A stretch of 64,000 nt of DNA from Chiloscyllium plagiosum (Eukaryota). Positions 3,375 through 64,000 of the stretch are shown here, piece by piece. The DNA is taken from NCBI RefSeq assembly GCF_004010195.1, contig NC_057718.1, positions 45,558,322-45,622,321 on the forward strand. Reading direction: 5' to 3'. The notes under the pieces were generated by a model, which ran no database searches, had not been told where the DNA came from, and was given only the letters and a program-made list of their open reading frames with translations. Both the position numbers and the translations under genes were made by a program. The number at the start of each line of letters is the position of its first letter. Position 1 is the stretch's first letter.

Positions 3375-3475
3375 CTGATGATGAAGGGCTTTTGCCCGAA
3401 GCGTCGATTGTTCCTGCTCCTCAGATGCTGCCTGCCCTGCTGTGTTTTTCCAGTACCACACTCTCAACTCTGACT
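3375..3475 (+). mobile_element. Penelope-derived terminal repeat, family A (single arm), with degenerate hammerhead core
   Basis: ctgatgatgaagggcttttgcccgaagcgtcg...gatgctgcctgccctgctgtg, homologous to the copies at 20.3, 24.4, 39.1, 49.9 and 63.2 kb. Confidence 0.75.
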
Positions 3476-6230: not shown

Positions 6231-6391
6231 GTTTAAAAATCACAACACCAGGCTATAGTTCAACAGGTTTATTTGGAAGTACAAGCTGTCGGAGCACTGC
6301 TCCTTTGTCAAGTAGCTGATGGACTTTAGCCTGGTGTGGTGATTTTTAAACTTTGTCCACTCCAGTGGAATACTGGCACCGCCACATCATT
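6231..6391. mobile_element. Penelope-derived palindromic mini-element, family B, with 10-bp TSD
   Basis: Inverted arms aaaaatcacaacaccaggcta / tagcctggtgtggtgattttt. Direct repeat aaatttctaa at 6221-6230 and 6392-6401. Confidence 0.75.
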
Positions 6392-7455: not shown

Positions 7456-8899
7456 GACATCATCTGGCCTGCCTAAATCCCCAACCTCAGCCAATGTGTC
7501 TCTCCTATTTGAGCCGAAAACATATTGCTCAAGGAAGTTTTACTGAATACATTTTATAATTCTTTCTACTCCCTGTCTTCCATTTACTTGAACTATTTAA
7601 ATATCAATTGGAATAATTAAAAGTCCCCTAGTACTACTACTTGCACATCTGATTTCCCTTTCAATATTTTCAGATTTAATCGAACATCCCCAGTCATCCT
7701 CAAATTTAAATCAAAATAATTCAATTTTTCACTCCTCAAAAAGGATACCCTTATTTCCAACACTACTTTTTGCCACCCCACCTTCCTCCCTATTATCCTT
7801 CACTACCTTTTCCAAGCTAATACATCCCTGAATATTATTCATTCGCTCCAAAATCAGATTCCATTAAAATGTCTTTGAAAGCATATCCCAAAATCATTAT
7901 AAGTAGAAGTCTTTTCTAACAATGACCAAAGAAATAGAATTAAGAAGAAAAAAGAAAAAACTTAAAATCTCTCCACATCTATGACTGAAATTCTTCTACT
8001 GTCAAAAGGTCCATCAGGACCAGGGCACTCCTCAACCTGCAGCTTCAACACTTGTAAAATCAAATTCTGCATCAATGCTACAATTCTTCTGTTCTACTCA
8101 AGCGCACAATTTTAATAAGAGTCCTCTCAATAGTCAATCATAGCAACCTCAACAAGATTTAAAAAGTGCAAACAGTAACCATCCTAAATTTATCTTTCAG
8201 CATTAAATCAGGATGGGCATGGATGAGGCTGCTCGTCGGATGCTGCCTGAATTGCTGTGCTCTTCCAGCACCACTGATCCAGAAGATGGATGGGGAGACA
8301 GACAAGGTTTTTTCCCTGGGGTGTGAACATCCAAGGATAGAGGGGATAGATTTTAAAAAAGGGACCTAAGGTGGGGATCTTTTCCACACAGACTGGTGAG
8401 TGTATGTAATAAGCTGCCAGAAGAAGTGGAGGAGGCTGGGACACTTACAGCATCTGGATGAACATATGAATATGAAGAGTCAAATGGGACTGGATTTAAT
8501 TAGGATATCTGGTCAGCATGTTGGACTGAAGGGCCGGTTTCTGTGCTGCATACCTCTATGACTCTGCAAGTTCCTTTTGAGCAATACGTGAGAAAGAAAA
8601 TAGAATGAAGGCTGATATAAGTCTGACAAAAAATTGCAGATTGATACAAGCCTACGAAAATTTTTATTTTGGAAACATTTCCAGAGAATGAACAGATATA
8701 CATTTGCTAACCAACCTTTAACCCCAAATTTCGATGCTCACTAAATTTCTGCTGTAGCAGAAATTCTCTGGCTTTTAAAGAAAATGCACTTTCCTGGTCA
8801 AGATGGTGGCACTTCTTATGATCAAATCTGAAAGTAAAATTTACAGAGAAGACAGGAAAAGAAGTGACTTAGAAAAAACAAACATGTCTATTTGCTCTA

Positions 8900-11300
8900 G
8901 TTCCACAAAAACAAAAATCAGCATTGCAGTTGTGCATAAGCACCCCCCACAGCATGACCCAATTGAGAACACTGCAGGTGTGCTGCCGACTATACCTGAC
9001 CATCAACAGTTATAGCAGCAACACATCACTTCCCAGGATGAGGCTGTGTTCAGTTTAAGTTTTTAAAAAGAACAAAAGAAGCAGAGAAAAAAAACTCAAA
9101 CTGGAAAAGGAGTCTGCGCTTCGGCTCCCTAGATAACCAAAGACAGAGCTTAAAACAAAGAAGGGGGAGAAAAAAAGCTGACTGAACATTTTAGTTGAAT
9201 TATTCAGTAGACAACTAAACTGAATATATAAAAAGAACAGAGGAGAATTGAAGAGATGAATAAATGAAGGTGCTGGAGAGAAAAGGTATCGGGACAGATT
9301 AATAGGCAATGTGAAAAGGAACTCCCAGATGACTTGACTCCCTTATATCAAAAGTAGGTTTTGGGGAAGAGTCAGACCAATTAGGTACAATATGGAGAAT
9401 TCTTCTGCAGGTAGAGGGTATGGTTGCAATATGAAAATGAGCACTTTGTTTTCACTGTAGATATAGCTGCCAATGTAACAACAAGGAGACAGAGAAAGTG
9501 GATGGATAAAAGGGAGGTATTTAAAATGTTATCCACAATCAAAGAAGTCACCTATCTGGGTAGATAGCACAAGATGGAAGAGGAAAACTCTAGTCATAAT
9601 CTTACAATCCATTAATACAGAGAAAGAGCCATAGATTTGCAAATGGGGCTCGCATATTCATATTCAAAATGAGAGAGAGTGAGGTAAACACAGCTATTAC
9701 AGACCAGTCAGTCAATCAAGTGTTTGTGGTAAACTAATACAGATAATATTCCGAAAAAAAAAAACTTTCACTTGAAAACGTGTGTCAATAATGTCAGCCA
9801 GCATGGGTTTGTTAAAAGCAGTCAATCACATCAAACAGAACCGGAGTTCTTTGAAAAACAAAGAGAACTGAAAGTTTTGAAGTTGATATTGCGTATATCG
9901 ATTTTCAACAGGTGTTTGGTGAAGTACTGTATAATAAGCTAATGAGAAAAATTATGTGCAAGGGATTAAGTGGACAGTGGCAATAGTGATATAAAATTGG
10001 CTACAAGAAAACAGAGAATATCAGTAAATCATGTTTTCTTGTGATGCAGCAGTAATATCCCTACCGATGGATCTCAAGGCCCAGCTTCAAGTCTAACCTG
10101 CTCCAGAGGTGTGTACTAACATATCAGAACATATGAGAAAAACGGTTTAAAATTTTAGAAAACATAAAAGGGAAGGGTAGAGTGACCAGATGTCAGCATG
10201 ACTACTCTTTACTTTCTTATGTGGATATATGAAAACGGAACAATTGCAAAATTGCTGGACGATGTGTAGCTCAAACAGCTGCAAGATATGAGCCGAGTAA
10301 AAAGGAGGATATATTGGCAAAATGAGCCAACACGACAGATGCAATATAGAATTTAAAAGAGAGACGTATTGAGGAAGAATGGGGTTGTTAAAAAGGACAC
10401 AGAATTATTGGCTTTATAAGCAGAATTTTAAGTTATCTTGGGAATGTGACTTGGAAGTAGTTCTGAGATTTACATATTATTCGAAACCTGCAGCCCATTC
10501 TAAAAGATGGGAGACTTAACAGCAATCTAGGTTTGTTCAATATCTTATCAGTTGCATGACAGTATGATCTTTTACTATAAAGTCTGTGTCTTATGATCCT
10601 GCCCCACTTGCTACCCGACAAAGGGGCAGTGCTCCAAAAGCTGATACTTCCAAATATACCTGTTGGAATATAACCTGGTGTTGTGATATTTAACTTTGTC
10701 CACCCTAGTCTGGCACCAGCATCTCCTCATCATCATAGATTACAAAAACAGAGAAATGGTGTTTATTCTTTCTTAATTGAAAAAAAAAGGTGCAGCCGCA
10801 GTTAGAGCATTGTAGCTAATTCAGGTTACCATTTTTTTGGCAGAAATGATGTCACTTGGGACAGATGGCAGAAGACATACTCGAATAGTACCAGAGTTGC
10901 AAAAATACAATTAAGGGACACAAGAGCATTTGGGGCTGCTTCTGTTAAAGCAGAAACATTCATGGGAAGATTTAATGGAAGGGGTTTAAGAGTAAATGAA
11001 GCAAAACGTGTCAGTAACTACACAGCAGAGATTTAAAATTTAATCAAAAAAAATGCAGAGGGTCCAATAAACAGAATTTAAAAGAAAAAGAAAAAAAAAG
11101 TTTTAAATTCACTGAAATGTACTGCTTGAAAGGATGCTGGAAGCAAGTTCAATGGTAACTTCCAAAATGGAATTACATCAATCTTGAAGGGAGAATGTTG
11201 CAAAGTTCTAGAGAAATACAGAGAAATTAGGCTAATTCAATAGCTCTTAAAACAGCTAGCATAGGCATTATGGACCAAAAGATTGCTGCAGCAATCCTAT
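8900..11300 (+). mobile_element. Old, heavily decayed CR1 LINE (ORF2 remnants and 3' end), containing nested small insertions
   Basis: QHGFVK (cagcatgggtttgttaaa, about 9800), DIAYIDFQ (gatattgcgtatatcgattttcaa, about 9890), and CR1-type 3' region at 10740-11300. Confidence 0.6.
10600..10735 (+). mobile_element. Penelope-derived terminal repeat, family B (single arm, degenerate core)
   Basis: cttccaaatatacctgttggaatataacctggtgttgtgatatttaactttgtccacc matches the right arm of 23456-23666. Confidence 0.7.
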
Positions 11301-13651: not shown

Positions 13652-14552
13652 GAGAATTTGATAAGGTTCCCCATGGTAGGCTCATTCAGAAGGTCAGGAG
13701 AAATGGAATACAGGGGAACTTAGCTGTCTGGATATAGAATTGGCTGGCCAACAAAAGACAGCGAGTGGTAGTAGAAGGAAAATATTCTGCCTGGAAGTCA
13801 GTGGTGAATGGTGTTCCACAGGGCTCTGTCCTTGGGCCTCTACTGTTTGTAATTTTTATTAATGACTTGGATGAGGGGATTGAAGGATGGGTCAGCAAGT
13901 TTGCAGATGACACAAAGGTTGAAGGTGTTGTTGACAGTATAGAGGGCTGTTGTAGGCTGCAGCGGGACATTGACAGGATGCAGAGATGGGCTGAGAGATG
14001 GCAGATGGAGTTCAACTTGGATAAATGCGAGGTGATGCATTTTGGAAGGTCGAATTTGAAAGCTGAATACNNNNNNNNNNNNNNNNNNNNNNNNNNNNNN
14101 NNNNNNNNNNNNNNNNNNNNNNNNNNNNNNNNNNNNNNNNNNNNNNNNNNNNNNNNNNNNNNNNNNNNNNNNNNNNNNNNNNNNNNNNNNNNNNNNNNNN
14201 NNNNNNNNNNNNNNNNNNNNNNNNNNNNNNNNNNNNNNNNNCATAGATAGAGTCGATAGCCAGAGACTATTTCCCAGGGCAGAAATGGCTAACACGAGGG
14301 GTCATAGTTTTAAGCTGGTTGGAAGAAAGTATAGAGGGGATGTCAGAGGCGGGTTCTTTACACAGAGAGTTGTGAGAGCATGGAATGCGTTGTCAGCAGC
14401 AGTTGTGGAAGCAAGGTCATTGCGGACATTTAAGAGACTGCCGGACATGCATATGGTCACAGAAATTTGAGGGTGCATACATGAGGATCAGTGGTCGGCA
14501 GAACATCGTGGGCTGAAGGGCCTGTTCTGTACTGTACTGTTCTATGTTCTAT
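13652..14552 (+). mobile_element. Relatively young 5'-truncated CR1 LINE (RT C-terminus and 3' tail) spanning an assembly gap
   Basis: Open frame GVPQGSVLGPLLFVIFINDLD...KFADDTK...WQMEFNLDKCEVMHFG, then TRGHSFKL...FFTQRVVRAWN, and a (ttctatg)n tail. Confidence 0.92.
14071..14241. other. Assembly gap (171 N)
   Basis: Run of N in the sequence. Confidence 1.
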
Positions 14553-17099: not shown

Positions 17100-18800
17100 T
17101 CTCATGGATTGTTTACAGTGCAAAAGGAGGCCATTCAGTCCATATTATCGATGCTGGTCAACAAAGGTTGGGTTAAAACAGAAATTGGTGGAGAAATTCA
17201 GCAGGTCTGGCAGCATCTTTGGAGAAAAAGCAGAGTTAACATTTCAGCTGCAGTGACCCTTCTTCAGAAATTTGGCTACACTAATCCCATTTTCCAGATC
17301 TTGGCCTATAGTCCTGCAGGCTATGACAATGCAAGTGAATATCTCAATAGAGATTCAATGCTTTGAGAGTTTCTGACTCAATTAACCTTTCAGACAGTAA
17401 GTTCCAGACATCCACCCAATCTATGGATGAAAAGAAAACTTAGCTTTCTACTTCTTACTTTAAATCAATATCCCCTGGTTATTGACCCTCCAGTAACAGA
17501 AAAAGTGCCCTGCTATCCAACTTGTCTCCATTCCTCATAATCCTATACATATTAGTATCAGGTTTCCTCTGAACCTTTGCAATGATAAGGAAAACAATCC
17601 CAGGCTATCCAATCATTCCTCATATCTCAGACCCTCTAGCCAAGGCAGCATTCTGGTAATTCCTGTATACACCCTCTCTGGTGCAATCATATCCTTCTTA
17701 TGTGGTGTCCAGAAGTGCACACAGTACTCCAACAGAGACTTAATTAGCAGCTTAATCAACAATTCCAACACAGCCTTCTTATACGTGCACTATATGCCTC
17801 AGCTTATATAGGCATTGGTTAATTTTACTTGCCACTGCTCTGCTAAGCTGACCAGGGTATCCTCCTCACTATTTACCACTTTACTAATTTTTGTGTCACA
17901 CATAAACTTCTTGATCATAGTCTCTTCATTTGAGTCCAAATTGTGTACATCACAAATAGCAAGGGGTGCCAGCACTGCAGAACCCCACTGAGAACACACA
18001 GTCGCAGAAATGTTACCCTCTGCTTCCTGCCTCACAGCAAATTTTAGATCCAATATGCCAGTTTGCCTTGGATCCCATGACCTTTACTTTCTGAGACAAT
18101 CTGCAAGATCAAAAATATCTTATCAAAAGCCTTACTGAAGTCCAAGATGATCACATGAAATGCATTACCATAATGCATTGATCTATCATGCCACTTTGCC
18201 TTAGATGCCATGGGCTATTAATTTCTTGAGTAGTCTGCTATGACAAACCATATCAAAAGCCTTGCTAAAGTCCAAGGAAACCATGTCAAATATATTACTC
18301 TTATCAACACTTCTGGTTACCTCCTTCAAACATTTTCTCAATGTGTCAAACACAATCTTCCCTTAACAAATCCTTGCTGACCATCCCTGATTAATCCATG
18401 TTTCTCCATATTCTGTCCCTCAAAATTCTTTCTAATGATTTCCCCACCACTGAAGTTAGACTGACTGGCCTGTAATTTCCTAGTCTATCCCATCCACCCT
18501 TTGGTTTTATTTAATAGGACAAGGTTAGCAGTCCTCCAATCCTTCAGCACCAATCTGTGGCCAGAGAGGATTTGAAAATTACTGCCAGGTCACTGATATC
18601 CTTTCCCTTGTCTCCCTCAACAACCTGGGACACAACTGAACCAGGACTGCGGATTTATCCATTTTAAGATTGCTAAACCCATTAGTACTTCCTCTATGTT
18701 ATTTCAGTCCACTATTTCCCAGCTCTCCATTCTGATATTTATATCTGCATTATCCTTTTCTACTATGAAAACTGACACAAAGTAATCGTTGAGGTCCTCA
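17100..18800 (-). mobile_element. Decayed CR1 ORF2 with a nested family C Penelope repeat (17175-17270) and an internal ~133-bp tandem duplication (18055-18300)
   Basis: Reverse complements of YRPVSLTSVVGK (ccccaccactgaagttagactgactggcctgtaatt) and DFSKAFD (tcaaaagccttactgaagtcc, present twice). Confidence 0.75.
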
Positions 18801-20264: not shown

Positions 20265-20477
20265 TAGGAGAAAGTGAGGACTGCAGATGCTGGAGACCAG
20301 AGTTGAAAAATGTGATGCTGAAAAAACACAGCAGGCCAGGCAGCATCCGAGGAGCAGGAGAATCAACGTTTCGGGCATAAGAAGGCATAAGAAGGGCTTA
20401 TGCCCGAAACGTCGATTCTCCTGCTCCTCGGATGCTGCCTGGCCTGCTTTGTTTTTCCAGCATCACATTTTTCAACC
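20265..20477. mobile_element. Penelope-derived palindromic mini-element, family A, with imperfect 14-bp TSD
   Basis: Near-perfect inverted arms around 20380-20392. Flanks are gaggtccagtcagt (20251-20264) and gaggtatagtcagt (20478-20491). Confidence 0.85.
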
Positions 20478-23082: not shown

Positions 23083-23385
23083 TAGAATCCCCAGAGTGTG
23101 AAAACAGGCCAGTCAGCCCATCCCATCAAAGAGCAACCCACCCCATCCCTGTAACCTTGAATTTCCCATGGCTAACACACCTAACCTCCACATCCCTGGA
23201 CACTGCAATTTAGCATGGCCAATCTACCTAACTCGCACATCTTTGGACTGTGGGAGGAAACTCATGTAGACACGGGAATGGGGTCGGTGGAAATGTGCAA
23301 ACTCCACACAGACAGTCGCACGAGGCTGGAATCAAACCCTGGGTCCCAATGTTGCGAGGCAGCAGTGCTAACCCCTGAGCCACTA
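23083..23385 (-). mobile_element. HE1-like SINE
   Basis: Homologous to 5604-5915. Confidence 0.8.
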
Positions 23386-23455
23386 TGCTGGACTGGGTGC
23401 AGAGGTGACTTGAATGAGTGAGTAGGCAGTGCAGAAAGCATACAAAATTATTAGT

Positions 23456-23666
23456 TATGATGTGGAGGTGCCAGTGTTGGACTGGAGTGGACAAAGCTAA
23501 AAATCACACAACACCAGGTTATAGTCCAACAGGTTTATTTGGAAGCACTAGCTTTCGGAGCACTGTTCCTTCTTCCTACAACCACCTGAAGAGAGAGCAG
23601 CGCTGTCCGAAAGCTAGTGCTTCCAAATAAACCTGGTGGACTATAACCTGGTGTTGTGTGATTTTT
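23456..23666. mobile_element. Penelope-derived palindromic mini-element, family B, with hammerhead core and 12-bp TSD
   Basis: Inverted arms 23499-23560 / 23607-23666. Core CTGAAGA(23586)...GAAAGCTA(23609-23616). Flanks are aaaattattagt (23444-23455) and aaaattgttagt (23667-23678). Confidence 0.85.
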
Positions 23667-24334
23667 AAAATTGTTAGTGTGAGGGGGTTTTGGCTAGGAG
23701 AGTGCCAGTGAGGGAAAATTCTGCATGAAATAGTGAGAGTGGTAGAGTATGAACTTCGGTAGGAGGTCAGTCCAGTAGCAGAGATTGAGTGAGTTTGAGG
23801 TAGCAGTGAGAAGATAGTGGCATTCCTGATGGAGTGAAGAGGATCATCACCTTGGTGCAGCATTGCTGGGTATTCCTGGGTATTCCTCCCAATGTCTACT
23901 ACTGCACTGATCCAGCTGACAGCCTCAGACCCCGATTGGGGCCATCTCCGACAATCCTGGAGTGACGAGGACAACCCTCCCCTTCACCACCCCATCCACT
24001 AGCACCTCACGGTCTCTATCCGCAAAGCATGGCACCCATTTCCAGTTGTCTGCCGTGTACCAGGGGAAGAATGTCTCAAACCATGCAGGACAGCTCTGAA
24101 CTGCCAGTTATTGAGTACGTGATGGCCTTTTAAAATATGGTGCCAGTGCCAGGTACCCCAGGATCGCCAAAGCATTGGTGAGTATTCCCACCTACAGTGA
24201 GTAGGAGCATTAGGCTAACCTTGGATGAGCAGGGCACCATAGGGGCATGGCATCTAGTTAACAAGATGAATTTGGGATGATAATATGAGTAAATACGTGA
24301 GAGAAACTCCCTATGAAATACAATGAATAAGACA

Positions 24335-24507
24335 GCATCCAGGGAACAGGAGAATCGACGTTTCGGGCATAAGCCCTTCTTCCTGAAGAAGGGCTTATGC
24401 CCGAAACGTCGATTCTCCTGTTCCCTGGATGCTGCCTGACCTGCTGCGCTTTTCCAGCAACATATTTCCAGCTCTGATGTCCAGCATCTGCAGACCTCAC
24501 TTTCTCC
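24335..24507. mobile_element. Penelope-derived palindromic mini-element, family A, with intact hammerhead core and perfect 15-bp TSD
   Basis: Perfect inverted arms centred at about 24382. CTGAAGA-A-GGGC-TTAT-GCCC-GAAACGTC at 24383-24410. acaatgaataagaca at 24320-24334 and 24508-24522. Confidence 0.9.
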
Positions 24508-24829
24508 ACAATGAATAAGACACCTACCTGATTTCTGGTAAGATTCAGGCTTTGTGACACTGGAAACATTCTGGAAAAAATTCTAAATTTGAAGAAGTGC
24601 TTCAGAATAGGAGCCCAAGCAACTTGGATATGTGATTAATTTATTTTCTCACCAAGTCAAATATATATAAGTTATTAGTGTTTTAATTACTTACTGTTTA
24701 ATTAATTGATTAGACCTTGGGGGATTAGATCATAATGATCTAAATAGAGGATATGAACATTAAAGAGTTCCAGATTTTCAGTAAATTTAAAGCTAACAAG
24801 CAGAAATAATAAGAGGGAAACAAAAAGGT

Positions 24830-38730: not shown

Positions 38731-39094
38731 TTGCTGCCCCTTGGTAAATCATTGTCTTGTGCAGGGGCAGCTTCCAAGTCATTCAACTCTCATTCCTCAC
38801 TAATCATTCTACACCTTGGGCCATCTCCATGCTGTAGGAGTGCTGACGCTGGTTGGATTCAGCATTGTTTTGGCCCTGAAGTTAATTAATGCTGGATTTT
38901 GAAAACCTGCATGACCCCACCTTGACCTAGCCAATGTCCCTCTTGTCTTTGTAAGGACGGTTGCCCACCAACAGTACCTTGACATTTTACATTATACCAG
39001 TCATATTAAGGGCAAGACATTGCTGTTGGGTCTCACTGTGATGCATGATTTTTTTCATTGAACTCCTGTATGAACCAGTACATATAATATGACA

Positions 39095-39221
39095 AGAGAA
39101 AGTGAGGACTGCAGATGCTGGAGATCAGAGTCGAGAGTGTGGTGCTGGAACAGCACAGCAGGTCAGGCAACATCCGAGGAGCAGGAGAATCGACGTTTCA
39201 GGCATAAGCCCTTCATTCCTG
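39095..39221 (-). mobile_element. Penelope-derived repeat, family A (single arm), with probable degenerate TSD
   Basis: gagaaagtgaggactgcagatgctggagatcag...gacgtttcaggcataagcccttcattcct. Flanks are catataatatgaca and catattgaatgaca. Confidence 0.8.
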
Positions 39222-40144
39222 CATATTGAATGACAGCCTATAAATGTTTGATCAATCAGTTTGCAGTACCAACACATTTTCACTTACAAGAAGTAATTTT
39301 TGATACTTGCCTGGATAAATACTGATACTGCTATATTATAGAGATCCAATTCCAGAGTCAGATGTAAGCTGCAACCTCTGCCAGAGTATTCCCTTGCAAG
39401 TTGTACTGGCACAGAAAATGGATTCTCCAGCTGTAGGCTTCATGCTACCGTACCTCTTGAATCAGACCAGTATAAAACAGCTGCCTGGAAGTCACGTTAC
39501 TTGCAGGCCGAATGGTTTCTTATCAAGTGAATGCTAATAGGGTGGTATCTTGTTTGATCTGCTCCACTATGACTGAAGGAAATAGTTTAGCTCTGAGTCT
39601 AATTACATGTGGTGGATATGCAGAAAAAAATCTTTCAAGAAAAAGAATTCACATTAACTACTTCAAAAGGAGAACAGTAGAGATAAGTATACACAAAGGT
39701 GATGAAATACTTCATGGAACATAATGAAGCTATTTCGGATTGAAGGGCACGACTCCTGGCAGAATGATAATGTGTTCAAATAACTTTAATTCCAATGGTC
39801 ACTATAGTCTCAAAATTATTCACAGCTCCATGTACAGATTTGGATGGGTAAAGGAGCACAGTTGCAGTAATGGTGGAAAATTGCAGACAGCTGCAAATTA
39901 AAGGGATATGGATAATTAAAGGGAAATTCTAGGAACAAGGGGTTTAAATTCTTACAAGTCTTTAGAAAGGTTCAAAAAGTATTTCAAACTACTGACAGTG
40001 TGTTTTGAGGCTAGAGGCAGAAAAATGACAAGAGTAAATAAAACTGAAGGAAACTCAAAAACATGAGTTTGCAGCGATGTAATGGAGGAGGCAAGAACCA
40101 ACTCCCCTGTTTAATGGCTGCGGAAGTGACAGTGAACCATGGTT

Positions 40145-49265: not shown

Positions 49266-49935
49266 ATATGATTCCATGCTTCATTAGCAATATTGCTTCC
49301 ATTAAAAGAGATATCAGAGGCATTCTTGGGGAGGGGGATTAGTGATTCCATCCAAATGGACTTTCAGAGAACTTATCTATGTCAATACATACCATGTTAA
49401 TTTTAAGGTTCTACAGGAATGTGTGTCATTCTGCTGTATGATCAGATACCGTAGCTGAAGAAACAGAAAAAACAGTTGACAAACATGGAGCTATGTGGGC
49501 CAGATGGAACAATTACTAAAATTAAAGATATGGTCCAAGTAACATTGCAACACAAACAGTGCACAAGAGTTAGAAATATTCATGTGGTTCACAATCAATA
49601 TTCCTCACTTTTGAGTGCATGCATACATTGGCCTGAACATCCTTACAGAAGTAGCAGTTCGTTGAGTTCCTCAAAAACATTTAGTTCTGAAACAAATCAC
49701 TGTCAAACAGCCAGTCAAGGAATAGCTGGTAGAAAATTTCATTAGGCTTCCTAGATTCATGGCGGAACCCAAAAAAAGGAAAGAATCTATTGAGAGTACC
49801 TACCTTGGCTTAGGAGAATTGTTTCATACTATCAACGGGAAAGAAGTCATAGGATGTACAGGACTAGTGGAGTTTTATTCCATTCTTTTCATCATCCAGG
49901 GGCATTTCAATTCTTTGTTTCTCAAAGCAAAATTT

Positions 49936-50062
49936 CCAGATGAAGGGCTTTTGCCCGAAACATCAATTTTCCTGCTCCTCAGATGCTGCCTGACCTGCTG
50001 TGCTTTTCCAGCACTACACTCGCGACTGTAATCTCCAGCATCTGCAGTATTCACATTCGCCC
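49936..50062 (+). mobile_element. Penelope-derived repeat, family A (single arm, mutated core)
   Basis: ccagatgaagggcttttgcccgaaacatc...gatgctgcctgacctgctgtgcttttccagc. Confidence 0.8.
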
Positions 50063-52744: not shown

Positions 52745-52841
52745 TTGATTTGGAGATGCCGATGTTGGACTGGGGTCAACAAAGTTAAAAATCACACAAC
52801 ACCAGGTTATAGTCCAACAGGTTTATTTGGAAGCACTAGCT
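52745..52841 (-). mobile_element. Penelope-derived repeat, family B (single arm, core missing)
   Basis: aaaaatcacacaacaccaggttatagtccaacaggtttatttggaagcactagct is identical to the left arm at 23499-23553. Confidence 0.8.
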
Positions 52842-62055: not shown

Positions 62056-63198
62056 TAATTTACTTCCCTTCTTCGAAGAGGTAGCAGGATGAAATATAGC
62101 ACGCTTCTATCGCAACATTTCTTCAGTCTTTTCTGTTTCTCAGGTCTGGTTTGAGTAAGAGCCTTCCTAGGCCATCTCTGTCTTTCTTCTTCCAATCTAG
62201 ATATTGAGGTTGGGAGCAGGTGATGACTTAAGCATCCCTGCTGGGGCTCAGGTAAGTGTTCATGTTTCTCCATTCATTAATTAAAGTTGCAAGAAGATAT
62301 CAATCTGGCCTGTTCAGACCTCGATCCTCTTTCCCGCTCTTCCTGTTACCTAATGATAATGTCAATGTGGCTTCCTGCTCTGACCAGTCATCAGAACTCA
62401 AAAGTGCAATTGTAAGGAATTAACTATCAGCTTCAGTTGAGTATTTTAGAAATGGGAACTGTCAGATTCCAACAGCTGAGAGTAAATGCTCAGACAATTT
62501 GAACTGACCATTCATTCTTCTGGCAGCTGGGTGAGGGTTAAAATTGCTCCCAAAGTTTCAGTAAAATTTCAACACTCGAAGTCTAGTTGCAATGTTCAAG
62601 TGCTGTCTTTATTAAGCATGCAGGGAGCCATCACTGGACATTCCAGGTGCTTCTCCACTGAGGTTCAAATGAGCATAGTTTATGTATGTTTTCATTATCA
62701 ACTACAAGTTAACGTATTAAGTAGATGAAGGCCACAACACAAATGGCTCTGGTGGGAAATAATTATGTTCCTGTGTAGTCAATTGCATTGCAGGGTTTTG
62801 GTGTTGTTCTTTTTGGAGACAGTAAAGAATATGTGTATATCCTGCATAAAAGCTTCACAGGGTAAACCACTGACAATGGCCTTCCCCATTTCTTAATTAG
62901 GTTATCTTGTGCATTGTTTTTGTGTCTTCCATTTCCTAATGGAGTCACCCTGCACCGTTGTCTGTTTGTGTATGCTCTGGCACCTTAGCTGCTGGTCCTG
63001 GCTGGCTCTCCAAATCCACATTTTGTCCTTTCAATGTTTCTTTCAAAGATGATAGTTTATAAAAGGTACTTTGGTTTGAAGGGAAGAATGTCTTGACATT
63101 ATAGATATGCTCAAAGGGTTTACACTATATAAATTAGTCCATAGATAGCACCCACTATACAAGCTTAGCTCCATTAGAGCTGCCTCCTTTCTGCAAAC

Positions 63199-63397
63199 TG
63201 TGTTGCTGGAAAAACGCAGCAGGTCAGGCAGCATCCAAGGAGCAGGAGAATCGACGTTTCGGGCATAGGCCCTTCTTCAGGATTCCTGCCTGAAACGTCG
63301 ATTCTCCTGCTCCTTGGATGCTGCCTGACCTGCTGCGCTTTTCCAGCAACACAGTTTTCAACTCTGATCTCCAGCATCTGCAGTCCTCACTTTCTCC
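63199..63397. mobile_element. Penelope-derived palindromic mini-element, family A, with TSD
   Basis: Inverted arms. (ctcc)tttctgcaaac at 63184-63198 and 63394-63408. Confidence 0.9.
63242..63289 (-). ncRNA. Minimal type I hammerhead ribozyme motif (Penelope type)
   Basis: The minus-strand RNA reads GCAG-GAAUC-CUGAAGA-A-GGGC-CUAU-GCCC-GAAACGUC^GAUUC-UC-CUGC. This gives stem I GAAUC/GAUUC, stem II GGGC/GCCC, a complete catalytic core, a GUC cleavage triplet, and palindromic ACGU in place of stem III. Confidence 0.75.
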
Positions 63398-64000
63398 TTT
63401 CTGCAAACACCTCAAACAGCAGATAGACCAAATGTTTACATTTTATCTATTCTCACCATTTTTAATGATTGGTACACCTGATTTCTGCTACTGTTTTTAA
63501 CCTCTGCGACAATCATATAATAGTGGAGACTTTGTGGAGACTTTGTTGCATCATTTTGATTATTTTTAATAGCTCACGTTATTTTCTTGCATTTGAATCC
63601 TGTTTGTAGTTTTGGCATACAAATAAAATTAAGAAATTGAGATCTGTCATATTGAACCATCCCTATATGAAACCACAGGTTCCAACATGCCAATTGAGGA
63701 CAGCAGCTTGAGAGCAGGAGGAGAAATTGTTTGTCAAGAGCAAAGTGCCACCAACAGCTTCGCGACTCTTGGACACCAATAGCATATGTTTAACACCAAT
63801 TGTGCTGACACACTGGCTGAAAAGTCTGCAGTGCACCCCCAACACCTTTAGGAGTAGCCTTGATATATATGTGGTACTGTGAAGGAAGGAGTAATTTGAC
63901 AGTTAAGCAATATTGCCAGGTAAAAAGAATAGGCTGCTGACCACAACAAGGCTATGTGTACATAAGTAAAGGCTGCTGATGCCATGCTGACAGCTGGGAC

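Follow-up and report, generated by a model that had tools for sequence, protein, structure and literature searches.

The 64,000 nucleotides of Chiloscyllium plagiosum analysed here (the window; contig NC_057718.1) contain a palindromic unit of 173 bp that carries a hammerhead motif at its inversion point and is flanked by a duplication of its own. The question it raises is whether such units form a ribozyme-defined, non-autonomous retroelement, as an earlier note on this DNA had proposed, or are made by something already known. We find that unit 24335-24507 is a stub of a Penelope-like element (PLE). Retroelements of this class are well known and the stub is nothing out of the ordinary among their products, so it does not represent a new ribozyme retroelement.

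Anatomy of the unit and its hammerhead motif

In the element numbering used throughout, position 1 is window position 24380, C3 of the hammerhead is position 4, the predicted cut falls between positions 31 and 32, and position 128 (24507) is the last of the long arm. The earlier description of the unit as a full terminal repeat joined to an inverted truncated copy was correct, with the arms resolved at 24380-24507 (direct) and 24335-24382 (inverted) and overlapping by 3 nt (comparison for L001). The perfect 15-bp flanking duplication is seen at 24320-24334 and 24508-24522, and the intact hammerhead core is found by motif inspection at 24383-24410, both as first described. The inversion point had been placed right at this core; it does lie at the core's 5' edge, but about 28 nt away from the predicted cut. 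Coordinates of all features are collected in Table 1. Note that a 26-codon open frame at 24390-24470, with its AUG in hammerhead loop II and its stop in the pLTR, could be an upstream ORF relative to the long ORF discussed below.

Table 1. Features of unit 24335-24507 and other copies of the two families in the window.
Feature	Positions	Strand	Remarks
TSD, left copy	24320..24334	+	15 bp; final 2 nt also match the element
Tail-less inverted pLTR arm	24335..24382	-	element positions 6 to ~53-55; stops short of the usual ~94 site
Microhomology between the two arms	24380..24382	.	3 nt
Direct arm, family A PLE pLTR, positions 1-128	24380..24507	+	starts 1 nt past the inferred RNA start
Minimal type I hammerhead core	24383..24410	+	predicted cut after 24410
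PLE 'tail'	24474..24507	+	~34 nt between the two preferred outer ends, ~94 and ~128-131
TSD, right copy	24508..24522	+	15 bp, perfect match to the left copy
Family A palindrome, older	20265..20472	.	tail arm on minus strand; 14-bp TSD, 2 mismatches
Family A palindrome	63195..63398	.	core intact on minus strand; TSD 11-15 bp
Family A single arm with tail	39095..39222	-	TSD doubtful
Family A single arm, old	49934..50061	+	
Family A single tail-less arm, old	3379..3473	+	
Family A remnant	8229..8282	+	
Diverged A-like remnant	17185..17267	-	
Family B palindrome	23457..23667	.	second, unrelated hammerhead-bearing pLTR; 12-bp TSD, 1 mismatch
Family B palindrome, old	6234..6390	.	10-bp TSD
Family B copy	10421..10733	+	extends ~200 nt upstream into the 3' UTR
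Family B single arm with tail	52746..52841	-	

The hammerhead was assigned by motif inspection, using the motif rules in the parts of PMC4209133 covered here. The core reads CUGAAGA-A-GGGC UUAU GCCC-GAAAC GUC, with an extra A following A9, a stem II of 4 bp, a palindromic ACGU in the place of helix III (the dimer type) and a weak helix I, which at the native start comprises three pairs and a U-U mismatch. A search against Rfam did not detect the hammerhead family and returned six matches to miRNA hairpins, all below the gathering score. The predicted fold of the hammerhead region is no better than that of shuffled sequences (z ~ -0.2), and for a transcript of the complete unit the prediction is a 47-bp hairpin that spans the core and hides most of the ribozyme. 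A genomic trace of cut templates is absent from family A, as evidenced by the histogram of 240 arm breakpoints described below. The core is intact with a weak helix I, and dimeric self-cleavage after GUC is predicted from the motif.

Two families at the average density of the genome

The units in the window had been treated as a single family. Its 12 copies are in fact split between two unrelated families, A and B; five of the 12 are palindromic and three retain a recognisable core. The density of about 12 copies in 64 kb, singled out as notable before, is real in that the 12 copies are present, but it is simply the genome average: 100 evenly spaced 10-kb pieces (959,161 non-N bases of a 3.56-Gb genome) contained 127 A and 42 B clusters, old and short matches included, or approximately 11 per 64 kb.

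Several observations accompany this survey. A SINE-like repeat at window positions 23200-23390, which we take to be of the HE1/V-SINE type, lies directly to the left of the family B palindrome at 23457-23667, and positions 14071-14241 of the window are a run of 171 N. Nested insertions were seen elsewhere in the genome, with a family A palindrome inside another hammerhead-like palindromic repeat (L286:2597-2798) and, at L110 (~1170-1570), an arm of family A that is interrupted by a family B copy. In a further case one family B copy has 99% identical flanks on a small contig and on a chromosome (L084 and L085), probably as a haplotig or segmental duplicate.

Insertion as a unit

Of the further flanking duplications listed earlier, four are present, at 63184/63394 (15 bp, 4 of these common to the element end), 20251/20478 (14 bp, two mismatches), 23444/23667 (12 bp, one mismatch) and 6221/6392 (10 bp, exact), while the one at 39081/39222 is doubtful, amounting by eye to 14 bp with three mismatches and in a computed search to only 7 bp. 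Target-site duplications (TSDs) of at least 14 bp with at most two mismatches flank 20 of the 29 family A palindromes obtained from the genome samples and the window, versus none of 111 shifted controls. For family B palindromes, TSDs of at least 12 bp were found in 16/24 versus 2/96 controls, and for single-armed copies TSDs of at least 14 bp in 6/79 versus 0/312. When young pairs from all loci are considered, 34 of 49 have a TSD of 12-21 bp (including 1-3 nt common to the element), and none was found in the other 15. Joining the flanks across one copy of the TSD restored a continuous host repeat in 9 of these 34, at best with 98% identity and without a gap. As TSDs exceed the controls and host repeats are restored over a single TSD copy, insertion as a whole unit with its own TSD is established within this genome, and the earlier view that the units were inserted whole rather than eroded from longer elements holds. 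The young palindromes at L276, L020, L039, L017 and L034 interrupt multi-copy host repeats, presumably LINE-like, which represent paralogous empty sites.

A Penelope-like parent element

Close relatives of the long arm have the same 3' end, and in many of them a pyrimidine-rich 3' UTR, a GIY-YIG domain and an RT are found further upstream. The relation to Penelope suspected at the outset is borne out: the arms are the pLTR of an element with RT and GIY-YIG, and the direct arm (24380-24507) has 95-98% identity with the five pLTRs compared from in front of the ORF. Pfam searches on parent copies gave GIY-YIG with E 1.5e-4 and RVT_1 with E 3.4e-5, both under the curated cut-offs, and natural, broken copies of family A show the RT motif YIDD followed by a C-terminal GIY-YIG. 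The RT-EN linker in L063, L067 and L071 reads CX4CxxC. Within the parts of PMC8557442 covered here, a CX2-5CxxC linker is a Neptune feature common to Nematis; the family A linker thus appears Neptune/Nematis-like, a motif that by itself does not split these clades. The most complete copy, L291, is a broken, near-full-length element of 3.3 kb that consists of an inverted arm, a pLTR from position 0, the ORF and a pLTR ending at 93, so that one 128-nt repeat stands both before the ORF and after the 3' UTR and pLTRs are found at both ends. The long ORF of family A begins about 38 nt past the tail.

The inverted 5'-truncated copy and the one-sided tail of 30-40 bp that characterise EN+ PLEs were found in 29/29 sampled A pairs. 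The units, which as claimed before contain no coding sequence and no ORF, stand at the lower limit of a range of sizes that runs without a break up to ORF-bearing copies of the PLE, and L067 is an example of a longer truncated copy with the same kind of TSD. A search for PLEs with the same termini, suggested in the earlier note, did yield copies with RT and GIY-YIG, L291 among them, but all are broken: walking searches found no intact ORF or autonomous copy. A tblastn search across the window gave no PLE coding remnant, and a PDB search with the RT fragment returned nothing relevant. Family B has the same anatomy of arm, tail and TSD as family A; its copy L098 shows only a 3' UTR and, judged by resemblance, a possible ORF end. 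Taken together, the units are very probably de novo PLE stubs.

Two peculiarities of longer copies are recorded here. Unrelated sequence is present between the EN region and the 3' UTR in the truncated PLE copies L067 (~2120-2920) and L063 (~2300-2360), possibly through template switches or later insertions, and L194:2065-2513 is a 46-bp tandem expansion of an RT-thumb segment, in about ten copies, that keeps a long frame open.

The parent element also bears on the possibility of a DNA-transposon MITE, which would likewise be short, palindromic and abundant. Here the arms derive from the end of an element that encodes an RT, the ends are asymmetric where a MITE has symmetric terminal inverted repeats, and TSD length varies over the range given above for the 34 of 49 young pairs, unlike the fixed short duplication of a MITE. 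We consider this possibility refuted and leave it hardly any chance.

Junctions are made copy by copy

The proposal of a retrozyme-like mini-element, in which the hammerhead trims the transcript of a palindromic master that is then moved by proteins supplied in trans, draws on units that have no ORF and possess their own TSDs, and it could also account for the 831 exact matches to the junction of unit 24335-24507 that an exact-pattern search found genome-wide. Copies of a master, however, should inherit its junction and its ends, and they do not. The junctions are all distinct in 29/29 sampled A palindromes, and 49 young pairs gave 38 distinct junctions. Even among copies with the very same junction, the first 30 of the 831 matches comprise 29 distinct end pairs, four haplotypes and both polarities, the tail being on the arm that starts at position 1 in 10 copies, on the arm that starts at 6 in 16 and on neither in four (one masked, one rearranged and two with a very short arm). 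That this particular junction is seen again and again is explained by TTC and GAA, which are able to pair close to the end of the RNA. A master-copy non-autonomous family was rejected on these grounds. In addition, breakpoints show no peak at the cut, the hairpin predicted for the unit RNA would bury the ribozyme, and the units are not tandem direct repeats with one ribozyme each, as animal retrozymes are. With copy-by-copy junctions and the size series of the ORF-bearing PLE both speaking against it, the retrozyme-like family is very unlikely, and we continue with the units as PLE stubs.

The inner breakpoint and a probable RNA start

At base resolution, 121 of 240 arms start at -3 to +9, with a peak at -1, 0 and +1, whereas five start at 28-36 and a single one exactly at 32, the first position after the predicted cut. 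This histogram covers all loci including those from targeted searches, with 5'-selected targets skipped. Inner breakpoints therefore cluster on the 5' side of the predicted ribozyme cut, some 30 nt away from it, and templates defined by cleavage were rejected. In the sampled set of 137 arms, which leaves out 25 short unpaired matches, 67 start at -10 to +9, five at 29-35 and 31 beyond -10. Among unmasked pLTRs that precede the ORF, none of 28 reaches beyond -2, a significant difference from the sampled arms (Fisher p 0.003), of which 31/137 pass -10. An accumulation of 5' ends at 48-56 probably stems from short matches to related families and was dropped. It had been claimed that breakpoints lie repeatedly at or next to the ribozyme, and this is right insofar as they are non-random and located at the ribozyme's edge, but they do not peak at the cleavage site. 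The suggestion drawn from it, that ribozyme structure or cleavage defines the template or the strand switch, is not supported. The breakpoints match the 5' limit of ORF copies and an excess of G that would fit a cap.

The sequence at position 0 is TCATTCC, which we take to be an Inr-like motif. Immediately before position 0, Y-G occurs 2185 times genome-wide versus 815 times for Y-T, and with a background expectation of 0.56:1 this is a 4.8-fold excess of G. In 20 inspected G sites, a single G is plainly non-templated between TSD and element in two, while it comes from the partner arm in two, lies inside the TSD in two to three and in the native UTR in one; an earlier small tally, with G in 18/82 contexts, pointed neither way. 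Family B shows a TATAAA-like box at -32 to -36 in 13/16 copies, about 30 nt before the 5' edge, and its 5' edges fall at -12 to -2 in 16/20. Based on the 5' limit of ORF copies, the Inr-like site, the G excess and the missing peak at the cut, all of them properties of the DNA, the boundary likely corresponds to the capped start of the RNA. The hammerhead would then be found at the breakpoint only because this putative transcript start is 4 nt before the core. In the parts of the respective papers covered here, transcription of D. virilis Penelope begins at an Inr inside the pLTR (PMC2377424), and in L1 an extra G marks copying of the cap (PMC11702581).

The same clustering could arise if PLE stubs had their breakpoint set by a ribozyme fold or a bound protein that stalls the RT, and the position of the breakpoints at the 5' edge of the core in both families is what such a block would produce. 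Against it, the RT passes the point in 31/137 sampled arms but in 0/28 5' pLTRs. The presumed Inr-like TCATTCC, the extra G and the TATA-like box of family B fit a start site, and the hammerhead region is not predicted to fold any better than shuffles. Stalling is quite unlikely, and we retain the capped RNA start as the preferred reading of the boundary.

Two outer ends and the origin of the two arms

The outer ends of the arms are bimodal, at ~94 and ~128-131. One end with and one end without the tail were found in 29/29 sampled A pairs (p ~4e-9 if the arms chose independently), and clearly in 21/24 family B pairs, the other three being ambiguous. Note that the filter for the 29 pairs left out arms ending before 70, including the short arm of unit 24335-24507 itself. 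Over all loci, 60/71 pairs obey this one-of-each rule, and 11 look same-ended; five of the latter are 5' pLTRs running into the ORF, five are old copies cut by the alignment and one is complex.

The two arms of a pair also share their alleles. At four polymorphic sites, concordance between arms was 41/41, 41/41, 31/31 and 29/30, compared to permuted means of 28.1, 25.9, 15.6 and 20.7, respectively. A CpG site showed no excess of concordance, and one site is discordant between the arms at L337. An apparent allele discordance at position 84 was rejected as a selection artefact, since the loci had been picked by the variant of this copy (9 discordant among selected loci versus 0/19 unselected). 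Such concordance fits a single RNA and a pair of RNAs from one source equally well.

Identical arms are also explained by self-priming. Here a cDNA, or an antisense RNA as in the published proposal for rotifer Penelope (PMC3846280, in the parts covered), would fold over at the junction and serve as its own template. If a cDNA did so, the arm with the tail would have to extend deeper than its partner, but it is the tail-less arm that extends further 5' in 20/29 A pairs and in 17/24 B pairs. Common junctions would leave loops of only 1-2 nt, which cannot form, and the G at the start of the sense strand points to a sense, capped template. Fold-back is accordingly unlikely as the source of the second arm. 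One-of-each ends, shared alleles, the deeper tail-less arm and the biochemistry of the Anolis element PAc (see below) instead favour twin priming on one source RNA, which we regard as probable.

Proposed mechanism

With good though not full confidence, unit 24335-24507 can be described as a two-armed, TSD-flanked stub of an abundant EN-bearing PLE, likely to stem from one insertion in which a single capped RNA was copied onto both strands. The GIY-YIG nuclease would make a staggered cut of about 12-17 nt. One of the resulting 3' ends would prime the RT at an internal site near ~128 and the other near ~94, or unusually near ~54 in unit 24335-24507. With priming sites in the 5' pLTR only 95-130 nt from the transcript start, both cDNAs would either be extended to the very end of the capped RNA or terminate before reaching it, and the ribozyme, whose core would begin 4 nt downstream of the start, would be copied uncut. 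The two cDNAs could then anneal through a microhomology of 0-3 nt, and fill-in would produce a palindrome whose arms meet head-to-head and of which only one side carries the tail. The longer truncated copies would result where priming takes place in the 3' pLTR.

A further class of copies is of relevance to the run-off step. In 17/30 ORF-start copies (L294-L321), a pLTR and 170-550 nt of ORF are followed by a second pLTR that starts at -4 to +7 and is joined to varying points of the ORF, although the ORF-start query may favour such copies. They look like run-off at the RNA start with a subsequent template jump into the ORF. In its most general form, the model is that an asymmetric RNP uses both strands of a single staggered cut as primers on one capped RNA, each strand at a fixed internal site of its own, and that the run-off cDNAs, similar to retroviral strong-stop DNA, join head-to-head or jump back into the RNA. 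We give this general form an even chance; if true, one rule would cover inverted pLTRs, the one-sided tail and pLTR formation.

How PLEs acquire inverted ends and one-sided tails has been addressed by the self-priming proposal of 2013 (PMC3846280) and by the demonstration of two internal RT starts in 2024 (PMC11167929), both as described in the parts covered. The abundance of stubs amounts to a natural experiment that yields three testable rules: each strand has its own start site, both arms come from the same template source, and the 5' limit is capped and lies directly in front of a hammerhead that stays uncut. There is also a practical side, as annotation may mistake palindromes of this kind for MITEs, retrozymes or miRNA hairpins. 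Among openly accessible papers, a literature search turned up none that puts forward twin priming or a capped boundary for PLEs, and the novelty of the mechanism is not assured.

Comparison with known systems

The following comparisons refer to the parts of the cited papers covered here. The shark hammerhead resembles the minimal hammerheads of metazoan PLEs (PMC4209133) in the extra base after A9, the palindromic helix III and the short helix I, but its helix I is weaker than theirs and its cleavage is predicted. The same paper already noted dispersed solo hammerhead motifs in Schistosoma together with opposite-strand pairs 100-700 bp apart. Retrozymes share with the shark units that they are non-coding, hammerhead-bearing and, in animals, PLE-related (plant LTR type, PMC4918200; animal non-LTR type, bioRxiv 10.64898/2026.07.22.740005). 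They are direct or tandem repeats, however, with a circularising RNA that is delimited by ribozyme cuts (PMC4918200; bioRxiv 10.64898/2026.07.22.740005; PMC6765202), whereas the shark units are single or inverted head-to-head and have ends that ignore the cut site.

The architecture of inverted arm, one-sided tail and TSD is already known for EN+ PLEs (PMC8557442; Adineta vaga Pen2a, PMC3846280). Their insertion units have the head-to-head inverted arm, the tail of 30-40 bp at one end and the TSD in common with the shark stubs, as well as an Inr-like motif and a hammerhead in the pLTR. They differ in a TSD of 8-10 bp, compared to 12-17 bp for the stubs, and in that the commonest product in the shark is the bare two-armed pLTR, by rough extrapolation at several hundred thousand loci. 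That literature proposes self-priming, whereas the shark data favour twin priming.

The closest biochemical system is PAc, a Poseidon element of Anolis carolinensis that cuts and extends both strands, has two internal RT start sites bounding the tail, uses uncut RNA as template with no need for ribozyme cleavage, and is predicted to dimerise (PMC11167929). Family A corresponds to it in the two putative tail-bounding start sites, the hammerhead near the start of the ORF and the presumably uncut RNA template, and departs from it in the CX4CxxC linker and in the long ORF that begins past the tail at the distance given above. The parts of the PAc paper covered do not describe separate start sites for the two strands, nor palindromic stubs or a boundary at a capped start.

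L1, finally, shares with the proposed model the priming of a second RT on the reciprocal target end, a discrete TSD of 12-18 bp, microhomology and an extra G at full-length 5' ends (PMC11702581). In the original model of L1 twin priming the second primer lands beside the end of the first RT and the two pieces barely overlap, whereas in the shark PLE stubs both primings would occur at fixed internal sites, and the overlap of the arms is nearly complete.
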